This document shows positions 10,280 to 58,461 of a stretch of 60,694 nt of DNA, piece by piece. This DNA comes from an uncultured Thermoproteaceae archaeon. Lineage in GTDB: Archaea > Thermoproteota > Thermoprotei > Thermoproteales > Thermocladiaceae. The DNA is taken from assembly GCA_964575955.1 (NCBI GenBank), contig CAZNTG010000002.1, positions 1-60,694 on the forward strand, in the 5' to 3' direction. Made by a program: the position numbers and the translations under genes. Below the pieces are notes generated by a model. The model made no database searches. It was given only the letters and a program-made list of their open reading frames with translations, and had not been told where the DNA came from. How positions within the stretch are numbered: the first letter of the stretch is position 1; each line of letters starts with the position of its first letter.

Positions 10280-10585
10280 ATGGCTAGATATGTACTTATC
10301 GAAGTCTATCCTCCTGAACTAGTTCAAAAAGTTGTTTCAGAAATTTTGAAGACATATGAGAACTTACTAGGAGTTAAGCTTGTTGAAGCACCAATATCTG
10401 TAGTATTAATCGATCCTCCACGTGCAATATTTAGGGTTAGGACAAGATTTTTGAAATTTCTCAGAATGGCAATCTTACTAACTAGGAGAGTTGATGATAC
10501 TGACGTACTTGTTGTAACTATTAGAGTTTCAGGTACTTTAAGGAAATGTAAAGCTCAGTTAAAATCTATACAGAAGCTTATGTAG
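10280..10585 (+). CDS. rnp2: RNase P protein Pop5/Rpp14 family
   Basis: RYVLIEV N-terminus and VSGTLRK C-terminal motif; adjacent to an Rpp30-like gene. Confidence 0.75.
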   Translation: MARYVLIEVYPPELVQKVVSEILKTYENLLGVKLVEAPISVVLIDPPRAIFRVRTRFLKFLRMAILLTRRVDDTDVLVVTIRVSGTLRKCKAQLKSIQKLM

Positions 10586-14874: not shown

Positions 14875-14891
14875 AGAGAAACCTTTATAAA
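14875..14891 (+). promoter_or_regulatory. BRE/TATA promoter of the tRNA-Gln fragment
   Basis: AGAGAAACC followed by TTTATAAA, ending 31 nt before tRNA position 1. Confidence 0.7.
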
Positions 14892-14921
14892 TACATCAGA
14901 AATCTCAAAATAACAAATACA

Positions 14922-14990
14922 AGCCGGGTGGTGTAGCGGCCAAGCATGGCGGGCTCTGGACCGGTTGGGGGAGAGTCGGGCGGTCCGCGG
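14922..14990 (+). tRNA. tRNA-Gln(CUG) 5' half (positions 1-37) with GC-rich trailer; candidate split tRNA
   Basis: AGCCGGG TG GTGT AGCGGCCAA GCAT G GCGGG CT CTG G gives acceptor 5' strand, D arm, anticodon 5' strand and loop; no TTCRA T-loop or CCCGGCT follows. Confidence 0.75.
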
Positions 14991-15914
14991 CTAACACTTA
15001 CAAATTGAATTTTCAAGATTGTACAAGCTTAACATAACTGCGATATAGTCTGCTGTTGATCCTGGATTTAATCTTCTCTCTTTAAGATATTCGTGAAATT
15101 TCAATATATCGGTGTAACATTTATCAAGTCCTTCATTTTCAATTTTGTAGTATAGTCTCATAGCTATCTTTCTAATTTCTCTATACTTCTCATATCCATC
15201 TTTACGTAGTATTAATGTGTCTCCAAATCTTGCTAGTGAGTATATGTATGTTATCAATATTGCATTATCAATATTTTCATATCTTCTTAATATATTTTTG
15301 AAGAATTTTAATAATTCTAGAATATCTTCATAACATGTAACTGTCTGTCTTACACAGTTGTCAATATGTGAACAGTATTTAAATAATTTCCATAGTGTTA
15401 TATCTTCTCTAACTATCTTCTCGATATAGTATCTATCGTGTATGTCTGGTAGTGATGGTATTGGATTTATCTTCTCTACATAGCTTAATTTAATTTTTCT
15501 TAGAGCTTCATATAGTATTATTGTATCTTGACATGTTGAATATCTTTTTAATAACTCTGTAGCTTTTTGTAATATTTTCTCTAGAGTTATTTCATCTTCT
15601 ATAGATTTTAAATATCCTATTGAGACTGCTATAGGTATTAACATTATGCATGTTCCTAGACAGGTATTTTCACCTGATATTTTGTAACTTTCTTTTAAAC
15701 ATTTAGATATGTAGTATCCATACTTTATATATCCTCTATATGAATCGTATATACATTCTTCAACTATAGTACATGTTGGTATACATCCTCTTATGAATGT
15801 TCTTAATGTTATATGTGTATCAGATATTCTACATACATTTCCAGGTTTTAGATATGTTATAGGTTCTTCAAATATTCCTGAGACTAGTATATTACATATT
15901 TCTCTCAGTAGCAT
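14991..15914 (-). CDS. CitG/MdcB family triphosphoribosyl-dephospho-CoA synthase-like protein
   Basis: KPGNV, NTCLG, DTLILRK, LNPGSTAD motifs. Confidence 0.85.
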   Translation of the reverse strand: MLLREICNILVSGIFEEPITYLKPGNVCRISDTHITLRTFIRGCIPTCTIVEECIYDSYRGYIKYGYYISKCLKESYKISGENTCLGTCIMLIPIAVSIGYLKSIEDEITLEKILQKATELLKRYSTCQDTIILYEALRKIKLSYVEKINPIPSLPDIHDRYYIEKIVREDITLWKLFKYCSHIDNCVRQTVTCYEDILELLKFFKNILRRYENIDNAILITYIYSLARFGDTLILRKDGYEKYREIRKIAMRLYYKIENEGLDKCYTDILKFHEYLKERRLNPGSTADYIAVMLSLYNLENSICKC

Positions 15915-19810: not shown

Positions 19811-20353
19811 ATGGCATCACAACCCTGGTTATATGGTTTTGGATTTGGAATTAGACAAGCACAGGTAGTAACACCAGAACATGCTGCTAGAATAATTGCA
19901 CAAGCACAAAATCCATTAATGATTATTGGAAGTGAGTGTGAGATAAGACTTCCAAGTGGTATGAGAATTATAGATTATGCTATTGAAATTGCAAAAATTA
20001 AGAATATTCCAATCATAGTTACGACAGGAATCATTAAGGAAGTTAGAGAAGTTTATGAAAATTGTAGACATATGTTTCTTATGGAGATATTTAGAAAGTT
20101 GATAAATCCAAATTGGAATTTAAATGGTAAACCTCACGATCTTGCAATATTTATTGGACATATATACTACATGATTTCTCACTTATTAACAGCTACGAGA
20201 CATTTTGCAAAACATTTGAAAACACTATCCCTAGATAGGTATTATCAACCGAATGTGAACTTCTCACTACAAAACCAACCTCTACTAAATGTATATGAGA
20301 TAACTTTAAAGAAGATAGTTAATACACTTAGAGGACTCGTTGGTACACAGTGA
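19811..20353 (+). CDS. cdhB: CODH/ACS complex epsilon subunit
   Basis: NPLMIIG, DLAIFIG..YY, LKTLSLDRYYQPNVNFS; directly after cdhA with GGTGA RBS. Confidence 0.9.
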   Translation: MASQPWLYGFGFGIRQAQVVTPEHAARIIAQAQNPLMIIGSECEIRLPSGMRIIDYAIEIAKIKNIPIIVTTGIIKEVREVYENCRHMFLMEIFRKLINPNWNLNGKPHDLAIFIGHIYYMISHLLTATRHFAKHLKTLSLDRYYQPNVNFSLQNQPLLNVYEITLKKIVNTLRGLVGTQ

Positions 20354-55461: not shown

Positions 55462-58461
55462 CTATCTTGGTAGATTTCTCAGAAATCTCAAGCCTCTCAT
55501 AATGTGTGTAAGTAAGGTCTCTCTACTACACTCATCTATAATTCTAGTAGAAGCTCTTAGGGCATCTAATACATCGTTCATATGAACTTCAGTACTTACC
55601 TTAATATTTCTCTCTAGAAGTCTGGAGATGGCTTTATTAATTATTTCATGCATATTTTTATCATAATACAATGTTTCTACAGTATCCCTATACATATTCT
55701 CATAGTCTATAGCTAGACCATGACTAATAATGTCGTTTAGAGTATATTTCCACAATTTATGTAGTAATTCTACAAATACACCAATACTACATCCAGACCT
55801 GAGTGGTATTTTTGCTTCCTCTACCACCTCTCCTATAGAAGTTCTACCGTAAGATATTGTTAATGTATCTTTACTAAACTTCTCAGAACATAAGTCCCAC
55901 TTTGTATCTTTTGAATCTTCTAACAACTTCGTAGCAATATCAATCTCAGTTTGCATAGGATCCATTACATGAGCAATTCTAACACCATAACTACGACCAT
56001 ATGCTACAAGTGCAGGAACTACTAAACCACCACTATCATATCTATGGAAGTAGCCTGTATCTACAGCCCAATAGTTCTTACGTGTTTCTACAACTATCAT
56101 CAATGCAGTCTCGACAGGTGTAAGAGCTACAATATCATCACCACCAGCATAGACAACAGTACCACGGCGTTCTGCTACGATCATAGCATCTTTAACAGCT
56201 GTAACCATCATAGCAGCAGATAGACTAGCATGATAGACAGGAGAGATAATAATGCTAGTATCTAATGCATCAGCTATTTCAGCCATGAAATCCAGGATAT
56301 TTGAATACTTACTTGCTATCTTCTGCTTGACGTATTTATACACTATATCTTTAATACGTTCAGCGTATTCACATGCTTTTAGAGGTAGCTTACCTATAAG
56401 TAAGTCACCCATCGAGTCACCATCACCTTTAACAATAGCATAGTACATTCTCAATTGAGGTCTCTTCTCAATAAATATCCCATAATCAGCATCAATTAAG
56501 CCTTTAGACCTAACTTCTTCGAAAATATTCCTAATCTTACTATTCAACTGTCTCCTTAACTCGTTCGTAGACATGTTGAATATATTACCGAGATCGTATG
56601 AGAATGTACCATCGACTAATCTGCATAAAAGCCAGTCAAGACGGTCAAATATTTCCTCATACCCCTCCTTCTCTTTTTTACATCTATCTTCTAATGCTGG
56701 ACGAAGTATGTAATCTATTATAAGTCTATTTGAGAGAACTTCAGTACTCTCAGTTTTTAAATGTGATGTATCTATCATGAATTTATTTGTTCTCTCTATT
56801 AAAAATCTTAATGCTCTCTTTACGAGACATATAGGACATACATATTCTCCACATTTAAAGTATATCATTATTTTCTCAATTTTCTCAATATCTCTATCAC
56901 TAACATCTTCTGTAGATTCACTTAAAATTTCCTTAATCTTCTCCCTACACTCGGACAAATCTCTAGGAAGGTGTAGTATACTTGGCCTTATACCACAGGT
57001 AGTACAGTATCTCCATGTTTCTTCTTTCTCTTCTATACATTGTCTATACTTGTCTTCCGTTATTTTCGAGAGTCTCTCTGATAGAGGTATATTGTAGGGT
57101 CCTCTAGACTTTAATTTAAGTATTTCTTGTGAAAGTATATTTGAAAAAAGTATGTGATAAAACATTTTTCTTATGACTTCTAATTTATCTATCTTCAATT
57201 CATCTAACAATTCTTTATACTTCTTGAATATCTCTTCAATTTTATGAATTTTCTCTTCGTCTATGTATTTTTTGATGTCGTTGATATAATTGTTATAGAC
57301 CTCTTCTATATCTATGATAACTATTCTTGGATGTTGTGGATATGAGTATTTAATTATGTTCTCATGCTTTTCAAATATTATACCTATAAACCTTTCTAAT
57401 ACATCTTTAGAATTTTTAAGTTCTTTTCCACAGTCGACTAGTCTTTCCCAACCTTCTCTATACTTCTGTATGAGATATTCTTTCAATTTTTCAGAATTTC
57501 TAATCTTATCTATCAATTCTATATTTAGAGTAACTTTATCGAATTTTGGAATTAATAGGCTTAATGTTGCTGGTATTACAGGATGTGGTGCCTTAGTAAA
57601 CCAGCTACCCCATACACTCCTTATAGTCTCTATAATGTCTGTTACTTTTTTATCTGTCTTTACATGTTGTTCAATTAGCTTTAATAACCACTGTTTGTAC
57701 ATTAGGTTGTGCCTTGCTGTAGGTAGTATGAGAATGTCTGGACCGAGATATAGTACTAGTTCTTCAACTGTAGACCATGCCAGGTATGATATTAACCAAC
57801 TACCTGCCCAATAGTCTGCTGTTTTTCTTGCAGCATTTACAAATTGTTGTATTCCTGGAATATCTATATATATCAAGTATCCTCTAGGTGTTTCACTATC
57901 TTCAAAGTATCTGTGTATAAATAGGTTTGATATTGTAGCTGTAGCATAGACATGGTCAAATACTGTGTGTGTTGGAAATCTTGTATCAGCTGGACAGGAG
58001 AAAGGCCAACATTTTGCCCATACATACTCCAGAATTGCATATAGGGTGTGATATCTCAATTTTGCATCATCTACGCTCTGTATTATTTCTCTAATTTTAT
58101 TTGTAAAGTTTTCTACAACATCATTGCTAGGCTTCTCAGTCTTAGCGTTATTGTACGCTCTTTTACTAGGGTCGAAAATGTTCAAAATGTCGTAGAATTC
58201 TACAAAATGTCTAGACAATTCTTCTGAGTGTAGAATCAGCCATCTATCAAATGATGAAGCCCATATGTCTGCCGTCTTTACAACTTTAATAACATTCTCA
58301 CTAGGAACACCACCTCCAAACTCTGTTCCACGAAATATTTCTTGAAATATTGATTTTGCTCTTTCTTCATGGTTTTGAATATTCCACGCCTTATCAGGAG
58401 GGTCATGAAGCAGAGACCACGCCTTAATTACTAGAAATTCTGTATAGTCTAAAGTAGGCAC
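55462..58461 (-). CDS. cas10: Cas10/Cmr2 with HD domain and GGDD palm
   Basis: LLHDPPDK, PADTRFP, DYWAGSWLISYL, Zn motifs CTTC/CPIC, KGDGDSMG, VYAGGDD. Confidence 0.96.
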   Translation of the reverse strand: MPTLDYTEFLVIKAWSLLHDPPDKAWNIQNHEERAKSIFQEIFRGTEFGGGVPSENVIKVVKTADIWASSFDRWLILHSEELSRHFVEFYDILNIFDPSKRAYNNAKTEKPSNDVVENFTNKIREIIQSVDDAKLRYHTLYAILEYVWAKCWPFSCPADTRFPTHTVFDHVYATATISNLFIHRYFEDSETPRGYLIYIDIPGIQQFVNAARKTADYWAGSWLISYLAWSTVEELVLYLGPDILILPTARHNLMYKQWLLKLIEQHVKTDKKVTDIIETIRSVWGSWFTKAPHPVIPATLSLLIPKFDKVTLNIELIDKIRNSEKLKEYLIQKYREGWERLVDCGKELKNSKDVLERFIGIIFEKHENIIKYSYPQHPRIVIIDIEEVYNNYINDIKKYIDEEKIHKIEEIFKKYKELLDELKIDKLEVIRKMFYHILFSNILSQEILKLKSRGPYNIPLSERLSKITEDKYRQCIEEKEETWRYCTTCGIRPSILHLPRDLSECREKIKEILSESTEDVSDRDIEKIEKIMIYFKCGEYVCPICLVKRALRFLIERTNKFMIDTSHLKTESTEVLSNRLIIDYILRPALEDRCKKEKEGYEEIFDRLDWLLCRLVDGTFSYDLGNIFNMSTNELRRQLNSKIRNIFEEVRSKGLIDADYGIFIEKRPQLRMYYAIVKGDGDSMGDLLIGKLPLKACEYAERIKDIVYKYVKQKIASKYSNILDFMAEIADALDTSIIISPVYHASLSAAMMVTAVKDAMIVAERRGTVVYAGGDDIVALTPVETALMIVVETRKNYWAVDTGYFHRYDSGGLVVPALVAYGRSYGVRIAHVMDPMQTEIDIATKLLEDSKDTKWDLCSEKFSKDTLTISYGRTSIGEVVEEAKIPLRSGCSIGVFVELLHKLWKYTLNDIISHGLAIDYENMYRDTVETLYYDKNMHEIINKAISRLLERNIKVSTEVHMNDVLDALRASTRIIDECSRETLLTHIMRGLRFLRNLPR

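Follow-up and report, generated by a model that had tools for sequence, protein, structure and literature searches.

The 60,694-nt stretch of DNA analysed here in full (the window, contig C2 of its genome) comes from an uncultured hot-vent archaeon and carries what reads as the front half of a tRNA-Gln gene. Is this half a working gene whose product is completed in trans, or what is left of a broken tRNA gene? Our analysis indicates that positions 14922–14992 are very probably the 5' half gene of a trans-spliced (split) tRNA-Gln(CUG), one of a set of three genes predicted to serve both glutamine isoacceptors.

The 5' half gene in the window

An intact 5' exon of tRNA-Gln was identified at 14922–14959 on the plus strand (AGCCGGG...GGCGGGCTCTGG, anticodon CTG). 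Its 38 physical nucleotides correspond to tRNA positions 1–37, from A1 to G37, as the initial annotation had described. A perfect TTTATAAA box starts at 14884, 38 nt upstream of nucleotide 1; the initial annotation had recognised this clear TATA box, and the distance of 31 nt that it gave depends on the point from which one counts. A TTTAWAWA box with at most one mismatch precedes 34 of the 44 contiguous tRNA genes in this genome, mostly 36–40 nt upstream. The exon is followed, as had also been noted, by 31 GC-rich nucleotides, the trailer ACCGGTTGGGGGAGAGTCGGGCGGTCCGCGG (14960–14990), and then by the convergent ORF 14991–15914 (minus strand; Pfam CitG, 1e-36), whose stop codon overlaps the trailer end. 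The G+C content is 73% over 14922–14992 vs 32% for the window. The features of the locus are listed below.

14875–14893, plus strand: promoter, composed of a purine-rich BRE-like stretch (read by eye) and the TATA box TTTATAAA (TTTAWAWA match)
14922–14959, plus strand: 5' exon of tRNA-Gln(CUG), positions 1–37 (sequence and cross-genome exon comparison)
14960–14975, plus strand: retained intron-like segment (cis-helix scoring in 13/13 5' halves; layout as in whole introns of relatives)
14976–14992, plus strand: trailer strand of the trans helix, TCGGGCGGTCCGCGGCT (17/17 Watson–Crick pairs with C6:502253–502269)
14993–15011, plus strand: downstream flank common to the C13 5' half (AACACTTACAAATT), overlapping the 3' end of the CitG-like ORF

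The transcript end probably falls within the last of these segments, at a predicted position. A loose contig end at 15011 runs on into C13 sequence.

We found no 3' half in the window, in agreement with the earlier reading: the only tRNA genes that ARAGORN and Rfam detect there are two for tRNA-Ser, and scanning the genome for T arms placed no Gln 3' half on this contig. The two exons do not lie on one transcript, as the trailer leads into the convergent ORF and the contig runs 45 kb further without a 3' half.

Partner genes and the predicted joined tRNA

The initial annotation had proposed a split tRNA and a search for the reverse complement of the trailer next to a 3' half. Across the whole 1.52-Mb genome, k-mers of this reverse complement match contigs C6 and C13 only, and the search located the complementary 3' half at C6:502253–502309. 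This gene consists of a 17-nt leader (AGCCGCGGACCGCCCGA), the sequence AACAG and 35 nt corresponding to positions 38–73, including the T arm and an acceptor strand, CCCGGCT, complementary to AGCCGGG. The leader (C6:502253–502269) is the exact complement of window positions 14976–14992, with 17 of 17 positions paired and about 1.3e-6 such matches expected by chance in the genome. Pairing with the partner, which the initial annotation had assigned to the proximal trailer (CCGGTTGGGGG), is in fact confined to the distal 17 nt.

The C13 match is a second 5' half, for tRNA-Gln(UUG), at C13:13368–13297 on the minus strand. It ends in the same trailer as the CUG half, so the two 5' halves would use one 3' half, an arrangement that the initial annotation had not foreseen. 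The three pieces therefore occupy separate contigs: C2, C13 and C6. The 3' half leader, too, is preceded by a TATA box (one mismatch) at a distance of 38 nt, which is usual for tRNA genes in this genome. TATA-like boxes were likewise recognised by eye before all 13 5' halves and six 3' halves of the genus, the box of the C13 copy being weaker on the same inspection. When the exons were joined in silico, ARAGORN called tRNA-Gln(CUG) or tRNA-Gln(UUG) for every one of the 13 5' halves in six genomes. Compared with the contiguous gene of the sister genus (G008), the joined exons differ at 1/38 and 0/35 positions.

The tRNA inventory lacks a contiguous tRNA-Gln gene

The genome is 94.7% complete and contains 44 contiguous tRNA genes (43 Rfam hits and one more intron-bearing gene), which cover all amino acids but glutamine, the anticodons of intron-bearing genes having been read by eye. 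tRNA-Ala(CGC) was not found in this bin either. No contiguous tRNA-Gln gene was detected in this genome (G000) or in the five other genomes with the split set, all of them incomplete bins, and the same query recovered a contiguous Gln gene in every other genus examined. Because the genomes are metagenome bins of 69–95% completeness, a contiguous gene in an unassembled part is formally possible.

Orphan T arms other than that of the Gln 3' half comprised only an Ala fragment and an AT-rich chance match. The former is a degenerate 3' copy of tRNA-Ala(GGC), 2.1 kb from its gene, and apart from the Gln 3' half it was the sole find of a blastn-short search with all tRNA halves. Since the known Gln halves were absent from the 34 hits of an nhmmer profile built on 5' halves, that profile is uninformative about other split tRNAs.

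Conservation and origin of the split

The three-piece set is present in six of the seven genomes (species) of the genus, at syntenic loci where flanks are available. Across these six genomes there are only two distinct 5' exons, which differ at nucleotide 34 alone, and a single 3' exon, so that the Gln(CUG) 5' exon is identical throughout except for nucleotide 34, whereas the flanks and the hairpin loop of the intron-like segment vary. The trans helix has 15–17 bp in all six, with two compensatory pair changes: in the innermost pair, U-A in G000 corresponds to G-C in G003 and G006, and in the outermost, G006 has C-G where most genomes have U-A. In three genomes the helix is 15 bp long and a C·A mismatch occupies its inner end. 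The covariation thus comprises two base pairs in three lineages.

The seventh species, G005, carries a Gln(CUG) gene that is contiguous and interrupted at 37/38 by a 19-nt intron, which ends in GGAGAG and forms a perfect bulge-helix-bulge (H 4/4, h 5/5, h' 3/3). Its exon 1 equals the split 5' exon at every aligned position (the contiguous gene of G008 has 1/38 mismatches with the window exon) and its 3' exon differs at 1/35. With the split 5' halves, G005 has in common the 5' bulge, GGAG as central strand and an A-N dinucleotide; in contrast to the split set, both exons form one gene, and the anticodon stem, lying on the same strand, closes the 3' bulge. It lies on a contig of about 1.9 kb, where one neighbouring gene resembles window positions 10280–10585 at 44% identity. 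RtcB of G000 shows 94% identity to that of G003, 93% to G006, 87–92% to G004 (in pieces), 86% to G005 (first 195 residues only) and 80–85% to G008; the protein had no match in G001 or G002. These identities hint that G005 may be the most divergent congener.

Outside the genus, we found contiguous Gln genes at 20 loci in 13 genomes, and three of these genes have a 37/38 intron laid out in the same way. One other genus, the sister genus, also has an independent split of tRNA-Gln at another position. By this comparison, the split arrangement is derived from an intron-containing tRNA-Gln gene. A metagenome scan returned 47 stretches, of which three are split-type and identical, over the printed stretch, to the 5' halves of G003, G004 and G006; it yielded no new split variants, the remainder being contiguous intron-bearing archaeal genes or chance matches. 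A 14-mer scan of genome contigs with the short GC-rich query gave at least 120 stretches; among the matches listed, nearly all were from high-GC bacteria and one from a bin labelled uncultured Thermoproteaceae.

This evidence bears on two readings in which the window would hold no working split gene. According to one, a rearrangement or an integrating mobile element broke a tRNA-Gln gene and left these pieces behind as non-functional relics, while the working copy is hidden where the genome is unassembled. Partial copies of tRNA genes are indeed found here, such as the degenerate tRNA-Ala(GGC) 3' copy, and a bin at 94.7% completeness is not closed. Relics would not be expected to keep exons invariant over six species while their flanks diverge, to show compensatory changes in a trans helix or to have a promoter on each of three pieces, and the search of the six bins yielded no contiguous Gln gene of the kind that the same query found in every other genus examined; we consider this reading very improbable. 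Nor does the locus resemble an att-type relic, which would have an intact copy elsewhere and no promoter of its own: it has a promoter, no intact Gln gene was found, and it is conserved, with covarying partners. The pseudogene that the initial annotation had envisaged, with an intact tRNA-Gln(CUG) elsewhere and no 3' half, fails on the same grounds, no contiguous Gln gene having been found and the complementary half being present. That an assembler broke a contiguous tRNA gene, a concern raised earlier for the region near 14961, is extremely improbable. Unitigs of the probable source run do break inside the repeated 5' half. Against this, the exon–trailer junction is no misassembly, because a 208-nt contig from a different study's run spans 14911–15118 with one differing letter; the same junction was assembled in five other bins, and the 5' and 3' halves lie well inside their contigs (14.9 kb into 60.7 kb and 502 kb into 621 kb, respectively).

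The intron-like segment and the splice sites

Between exon and trans helix, the segment 14960–14975 shares its layout with the whole introns of relatives. A14960 is the third nucleotide of the 5' bulge, CC (14961–14962) and GG form a mini-hairpin (h'), GGAG (14970–14973) pairs with C32–U35, and AG follows at 14974–14975. A helix-bulge-helix can form in cis at the 5' site in all 13 5' halves, with 4/4 pairs in the central helix and at least 2/3 in h'. CC/GG and GGAGA are invariant in these 13, and the hairpin loop between them varies in sequence and length. The split at 37/38 with a G36-G37-A bulge, proposed in the initial annotation, fits this conserved structure (G36-G37-N). By these features, the 5' halves evidently keep the whole ancestral 37/38 intron, and the break is at the 3' splice site rather than in the intron loop, because the trans helix emerges at the position of the former 3' bulge.

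The initial annotation had also supposed that GC-rich leader and trailer form a bulge-helix-bulge in trans. Among junctions that give the expected tRNA, none has a canonical trans hBHBh'; in all 13 cases, no more than 1–3 of 4 pairs form in the trans central helix at 37|38. As a positive control, the same test finds a canonical motif in the split gene of G008. The proximal trailer would instead be retained intron, paired with the anticodon loop of the same RNA. For the 3' splice site, which has the conserved context C-A-N|A38, there is no 4-bp helix on the same strand; 5–7 unpaired nucleotides separate the site from the trans helix.

Several other arrangements were rejected. A brute-force search for a canonical trans motif over all pairs of cut sites gave a lone full-scoring hit, between the trailer and the variable region, which would compete with the 17-bp helix and gives no cloverleaf. 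A junction in the variable region, with the 5' half supplying the 3' strand of the anticodon stem, would leave a G·G mismatch in the anticodon stem of the CUG halves. Pairing of a leader CAG with the anticodon is not a conserved feature, as three of the six genomes have CAC or CAA.

A model for trans-splicing

We propose that three separately promoted genes serve both glutamine isoacceptors: the CUG 5' half, the UUG 5' half and the single 3' half. The 17-nt trailer of either 5' half would anneal to the 17-nt leader of the 3' half, and the acceptor and anticodon stems would likewise form in trans. The GGAG of the retained intron would form the central 4-bp helix in cis with C32–U35, with G36-G37-N as the 5' bulge and the CC/GG mini-hairpin as the outer helix. 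A two-subunit splicing endonuclease would then cut after G37 and before A38, and RtcB would join the exons. Expression, exon joining and presentation of the 3' site are predictions from sequence.

The genome encodes what should be a broad-specificity splicing endonuclease, represented by two EndA paralogues (catalytic chain, 2zyz_B match, 2e-66; structural chain, 2zyz_A match, 2.9e-7), together with an RtcB ligase (2.9e-178). The two endonuclease genes are located at C9:45073–45306 and C6:175188–175445. Two-subunit endonucleases are described as cleaving relaxed motifs (PMC4090602, PMC12397907). The two halves may meet in a three-way junction, in which the cis helix and the anticodon stem stack on each other and the position of the 3' bulge is taken by A(−2)-N(−1)-A38 from the 3' half; we prefer this reading but put it forward tentatively, at somewhat less than an even chance. 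That the endonuclease cuts a 3' site without any covalent link to the bulge-helix-bulge's central helix is a little more doubtful still.

The splice-site data can be read in two further ways. In a two-step pathway, the endonuclease would first excise the retained intron by cuts that follow G37 and GGAGAN, the trans helix serving as outer helix; the anticodon loop would then adjoin the trans helix, and a second relaxed motif with canonical spacing would present the 3' site. The spacing without the 16-nt segment is indeed exactly canonical in all six genomes: the 7 nt between CCGCCC and A38 equal one helix pair, a 4-nt central strand and the first two bulge nucleotides, and the opposite strand has C32–U35 and G36-G37-N before the helix. 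An 'A-N' dinucleotide also follows GGAG in 13/13 5' halves and precedes A38 in 6/6 3' halves. We nevertheless judge the pathway unlikely, as the second central helix would have only 1–3 of 4 pairs, re-ligation followed by re-cutting of the same phosphate would be pointless, and no precedent appeared in the portions of the literature covered. To our knowledge, excision followed by re-cutting at the same phosphate has no precedent.

At 70 °C the cis helix is not the fold preferred by the nearest-neighbour model. Of the 12 complexes folded and parsed by eye, eight have a minimum-energy form in which loop nucleotides 33–37 pair with the last leader nucleotides (CAGA or CCA), three pair in cis (at least two of these outside the canonical register) and one is mixed. 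The whole-half cofold of the CUG complex at 37 °C misfolded. Such slipped pairing in trans, of loop nucleotides 33–37 with C-A-N and A38, might itself be the functional substrate, leaving the GGAG segment as an unselected relic; C(−3) and A(−2), which can pair with G36 and U35, are invariant in all six 3' halves. We find this quite improbable: both splice sites would fall at or inside a helix and not in bulges, and N(−1) pairs with nucleotide 34 in three genomes only, since the other three have CAC or CAA. GGAGA and the CC/GG flanks are invariant in 13/13 halves even though the intervening loop differs in sequence and length, which argues that selection acts on the cis fold.

Comparison with known split tRNAs and implications

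A 2014 review counted 29 split tRNA genes with 12 anticodons in seven genomes (PMC4033280). In PMC3218864 (Table 1), Nanoarchaeum equitans is the only organism with a known split tRNA-Gln, divided at 32/33. That tRNA-Gln(UUG) is not split at 37/38, involves a single isoacceptor and belongs to an unrelated lineage (PMC3218864 Table 1; PMC4390854). Our literature search, which covered article texts, found no report of a split tRNA-Gln in Thermoproteota, where the initial annotation knew of none.

The closest parallel in organisation is N. equitans tRNA-Glu(UUC)/(CUC), described as two 5' halves with synonymous anticodons that share one 3' half at 37/38 (PMC4033280, PMC4390854, PMC3218864). There, too, each piece is described with its own promoter, a GC-rich trailer pairs with the leader, and a two-subunit endonuclease acts on a non-canonical motif, as we infer here. 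The phylum and the amino acid differ, and the Glu hybrids are said to resemble a pre-tRNA cut in the intron loop (PMC4090602), whereas here the intron would be whole on the 5' half. [quoted passage not shown] In our case, the halves are on separate contigs, the split affects both isoacceptors, and the test for a canonical trans motif was negative. Caldivirga maquilingensis, of the same order, has split and tri-split tRNAs (Gly, Glu, Ala) with common pieces used combinatorially, among which these accounts name no tRNA-Gln (PMC4390854, PMC4090602).

Split tRNAs are rare and central to the debate over whether tRNA halves are ancient or recently derived. With a congener that retains an intron-containing gene and a sister genus with an independent split, this genus offers a clear series for the "recent, derived" view. 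Unusually, the ancestral intron would be kept whole on the 5' halves; if so, breakage at the splice site itself, as opposed to within the intron loop, would be a new route to a split tRNA gene. The cis-helix architecture, if true, would widen the substrate range of the two-subunit endonuclease, and a 3' site unlinked to the central helix would represent a substrate geometry new to archaeal tRNA splicing. Standard annotators see such genomes as having no tRNA-Gln; both glutamine isoacceptors of the whole genus are predicted to depend on trans-splicing.

The 5′ half in the window

The candidate 5′ half of a split tRNA-Gln(CUG) was read from the sequence as an exon followed by a trailer, and the corresponding features are as follows.

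Start 38 nt upstream of the exon, +: perfect TATA box TTTATAAA
14922–14959, +: 5′ exon, tRNA positions 1–37 (38 physical nt)
14960–14975, +: post-exon segment ACCGGTTGGGGGAGAG
14976–14992, +: trailer strand TCGGGCGGTCCGCGGCT
14991–15914, convergent: CitG-family ORF, whose stop codon overlaps the end of the 5′ half
Upstream of the 5′ half: cytidylyltransferase-like ORF

The exon is composed of the acceptor strand AGCCGGG, the D arm, the anticodon-stem strand GCGGG and the loop CTCTGG with anticodon CTG. The G+C content is 73% for 14922–14992 vs 32% for the window. Boxes of the same type, with at most one mismatch, precede 34 of the 44 contiguous tRNA genes of this genome (G000), mostly by 36–40 nt. 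ARAGORN and Rfam identified two tRNA-Ser genes in the window and nothing else. The initial annotation named a misassembly near 14961 as one way in which its reading would fail; a 208-nt contig from a different study's run spans 14911–15118 with one differing letter, so the exon–trailer junction is not an assembly error. Elsewhere in the window, a 999-aa ORF (55462–58461, − strand) contains Cmr2 N-terminal and Cas10 palm domains and represents a type III CRISPR effector subunit.

Partner pieces and product

The G000 bin, to which the window belongs as contig C2, comprises 1.52 Mb in 15 contigs (94.7% complete, 0.5% contaminated). The reverse complement of the trailer was searched as 10-mers against this whole genome; only two other places contained more than a single 10-mer, and two more contigs each carried one isolated 10-mer. 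This search located the complementary 3′ half that had been predicted to lie elsewhere in the genome, at C6:502253–502309, with a chance expectation of ~1.3e-6 for the leader match. The pieces on contigs C6 and C13 are as follows.

C6, 38 nt upstream of the 3′-half leader: box TATATAAA
C6:502253–502269: 3′-half leader AGCCGCGGACCGCCCGA, exact complement of 14976–14992
C6:502275–502309: 3′ exon, 35 nt, preceded by AACAG after the leader
C13:13368–13297, −: second 5′ half, anticodon TTG

The 3′ exon is organised as A38, CCCGC, a 4-nt variable region, the T arm (CCCGG TTCGAAT CCGGG), the acceptor strand CCCGGCT and A73. The exon of the C13 5′ half is identical to that in the window save for T at nt 34; the 8 nt right after G37 differ between the copies. 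Because the C13 copy bears the same 17-nt trailer, followed by ~14 further shared nt, the two 5′ halves have one common 3′ half.

The Rfam tRNA model identified 43 genes in G000, and ARAGORN with introns added one real gene (C9:28574–28720), giving 44; two further ARAGORN intron calls, in AT-rich sequence, were spurious. According to anticodons read from sequence, the 44 contiguous genes cover all amino acids except Gln. tRNA-Ala(CGC) was not among them, and four genes carry a CAT anticodon. BLAST of the window 5′ half against G000 returned the three Gln pieces only, and apart from the Gln 3′ half, a genome-wide T-arm scan outside known tRNAs picked up just two places, an AT-rich sequence matching by chance and a truncated, degenerate tRNA-Ala(GGC). 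This Ala copy (C10 ~19895–19945, −) comprises ~46 nt from the gene's 3′ part and is separated by 2.1 kb from the intact C10:22034–22107, an arrangement such as integration of an element into a tRNA gene leaves behind. The initial annotation had also considered a pseudogene, to be recognised by the lack of a 3′ half together with an intact tRNA-Gln(CUG) elsewhere; the complementary 3′ half is present and no contiguous Gln gene occurs among the 44 of this 94.7% complete bin, which speaks against that reading.

After in silico ligation at G37|A38 to the 3′ half of the same genome, all 13 5′ halves from six genomes were called by ARAGORN as tRNA-Gln(CUG) or (UUG). In comparison with the contiguous Gln(CUG) gene of G008, a genome from a sister genus, the G000 exons show 1/38 differences in the 5′ part and 0/35 in the 3′ part.

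Conservation and relatives

The comparison covered 41 genomes of the order, including G000, all of them bins. The split set was identified in six of the seven species genomes of the genus (G000–G004 and G006), each encoding CUG and UUG 5′ halves plus a single leader-bearing 3′ half; G006 contains three 5′ halves. Across these six there are two distinct 5′ exons, with nt 34 as the only difference, and one distinct 3′ exon. The 3′ CCA encoding varies among the split 3′ halves (ACCT in G000, C6:502310–502312; ACCA in G003 and G006; ACCG in G001 and G002; AATT in G004). CCA is encoded in all seven G000 intron-containing tRNA genes whose 3′ ends were inspected.

The trans helix spans 17 bp in G000, G003 and G006 and 15 bp in G001, G002 and G004, where a C·A mismatch occupies the inner end. 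The covariation comes from three lineages: at the inner end of the helix, U-A in G000 corresponds to G-C in G003 and G006, and at the outer end the U-A pair of most genomes is replaced by C-G in G006, both sides being changed in each case. One of the three G006 copies (a CUG copy) has a C·A mismatch mid-helix. Where flanks are present, synteny is preserved for the 3′ half in G003 and G006 and for the 5′ halves in G001–G004 and G006. The CitG-adjacent locus encodes CUG in G000 vs UUG in G002 and G004, whereas the C13-type locus encodes UUG in G000 vs CUG in all five other split genomes; anticodon and retained-intron modules are thus exchanged between the two 5′ loci in G000 as compared with the remaining split genomes that were examined. 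The C13 copy also carries ~14 nt of the CitG-gene end, common to the window locus. This exchange suggests recombination or gene conversion between paralogues. The G006 loci (L007, L026, L027) have mosaic flanks, one CUG copy being common upstream with the UUG copy and the other downstream, which could reflect strain mixture or recombination. Of 47 matches in a metagenome scan, three were split-type, all being 5′ halves known from G003, G004 and G006; no new variants appeared.

In the seventh genome, G005, Gln(CUG) is encoded contiguously, and its gene is interrupted at 37/38 by a 19-nt intron (AGCGGGGCTCCGCGGAGAG) that forms a perfect bulge-helix-bulge motif (hBHBh′, H being the central and h and h′ the outer helices; 4/4, 5/5, 3/3); no leader-type match was identified in G005. 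The elements GCGGG...TCCGCGG of trailer 14976–14992 also occur in the hairpin of this intron (L009), and CCGCGGA is common to intron and leader. The trans helix may have descended from the old intron hairpin, on the basis of a match short and GC-rich enough to be due to chance.

Outside the genus, the 20 loci that were read, in 13 genomes, are contiguous, three with 37/38 introns ending GGAGAA or GTAGAA. The exception is G008: its CUG gene is contiguous, but its UUG gene consists of two same-strand pieces separated by 1.27 kb (L168, G008:C3:35287–38324; ~201–231 and 1468–1538). A 14-bp helix joins them, and at physical nt 25|26 they make up a canonical trans motif (H 4/4, h 2/3, h′ 3/3), which served as the positive control for the motif test; this split is an event independent of that in the genus. 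A 317-aa ORF without Pfam match lies between the pieces on the opposite strand. In a further relative (G021, L018), the 46-nt tRNA-Gln(CUG) intron includes TCTAGCGGGCTTTGGAC, which resembles a portion of the UUG isoacceptor's D and anticodon arms and so looks like a tRNA fragment within a tRNA intron.

Splice sites and proposed processing

In all 13 5′ halves, G37 is followed by one nt, CC-loop-GG with a loop of varying length, GGAG, A plus one nt, and the trans-helix strand. GGAG pairs in cis with C32-U33-N34-U35 (4/4, with U34·G in UUG halves), and CC/GG constitutes the outer helix with at least 2/3 pairs. This layout is that of the whole intron in G005 and other genera. By the textbook rule as given in PMC4090602, the central 4-bp helix includes the first two bases of the anticodon, and cuts follow the second nt of each 3-nt bulge. 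Based on the shared layout and this rule, the 5′ halves therefore keep the complete ancestral intron, with the chain break at the old 3′ bulge. The 3′ halves always have 7 nt from CCGCCC to A38 (GAAACAG, GCAACAG, GCGACAG, AAACCAC or AAACCAA), in which C(-3) and A(-2), counted back from A38, are invariant.

The canonical trans motif at 37|38 has a central helix of only 1–3 of 4 pairs in 13/13 cases, and no alternative junction giving the same product scores better. The three genes have promoters and a strong trans helix, the 5′ site is a helix-bulge-helix in cis, and the acceptor and anticodon stems can form only in trans. The genome encodes RtcB and a two-subunit endonuclease, the catalytic chain of which resembles 2zyz_B (2e-66) and the structural chain 2zyz_A (2.9e-7). 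Endonucleases of this type are described as accepting motifs of relaxed form, as well as hBH or HBh′ sites on their own (PMC4090602; PMC12397907). The RtcB open frames of G004:C43 (L186, L190) and G008:C6 (L185, L189) span 789 and 973 aa vs 485 aa in G000 and match in two blocks, which suggests an intein-like insert.

We tentatively propose that the complex is a three-way junction, in which the anticodon stem would join the cis helix without linker, the cis and trans helices would be linked by two nt (A-N), and six to eight nt would connect the trans helix to the anticodon stem. A(-2)-N(-1)-A38 of the 3′ half would occupy the 3′ bulge site, held by the anticodon stem, and be cut there; an extra cut after GGAGAN of the 5′ half would be possible and harmless. 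A two-step course, with the retained intron removed first and a second, relaxed motif processed afterwards, has exactly canonical spacing but leaves a weak central helix in that second motif, and we consider it unlikely. Still more doubtful is a slipped pairing of loop nt 33–37 with the leader end; the energy model favours this fold for 8 of the 12 complexes at 70 °C, but the splice sites then fall inside a helix or at one.

Comparison with known split tRNAs

Split tRNAs as such are known from N. equitans, Caldivirga and Desulfurococcales. Table 1 of PMC3218864 gives split tRNA-Gln only for N. equitans, at 32/33, and a full-text literature search returned no record of tRNA-Gln being split in Thermoproteota, nor of any split tRNA whose 5′ half retains the intron. 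The use of one common 3′ half by two 5′ halves is shared with N. equitans tRNA-Glu, as described in PMC4033280 and PMC4390854. Other split tRNAs are described in PMC4090602 as resembling a pre-tRNA cut in the intron loop, whereas the break here lies at the old 3′ bulge. The canonical trans motif, usually cited as defining split tRNAs, was tested and is not formed by these halves. As judged from the genomic data, loci, promoters, complementarity, product and enzymes all support their membership among split tRNAs.
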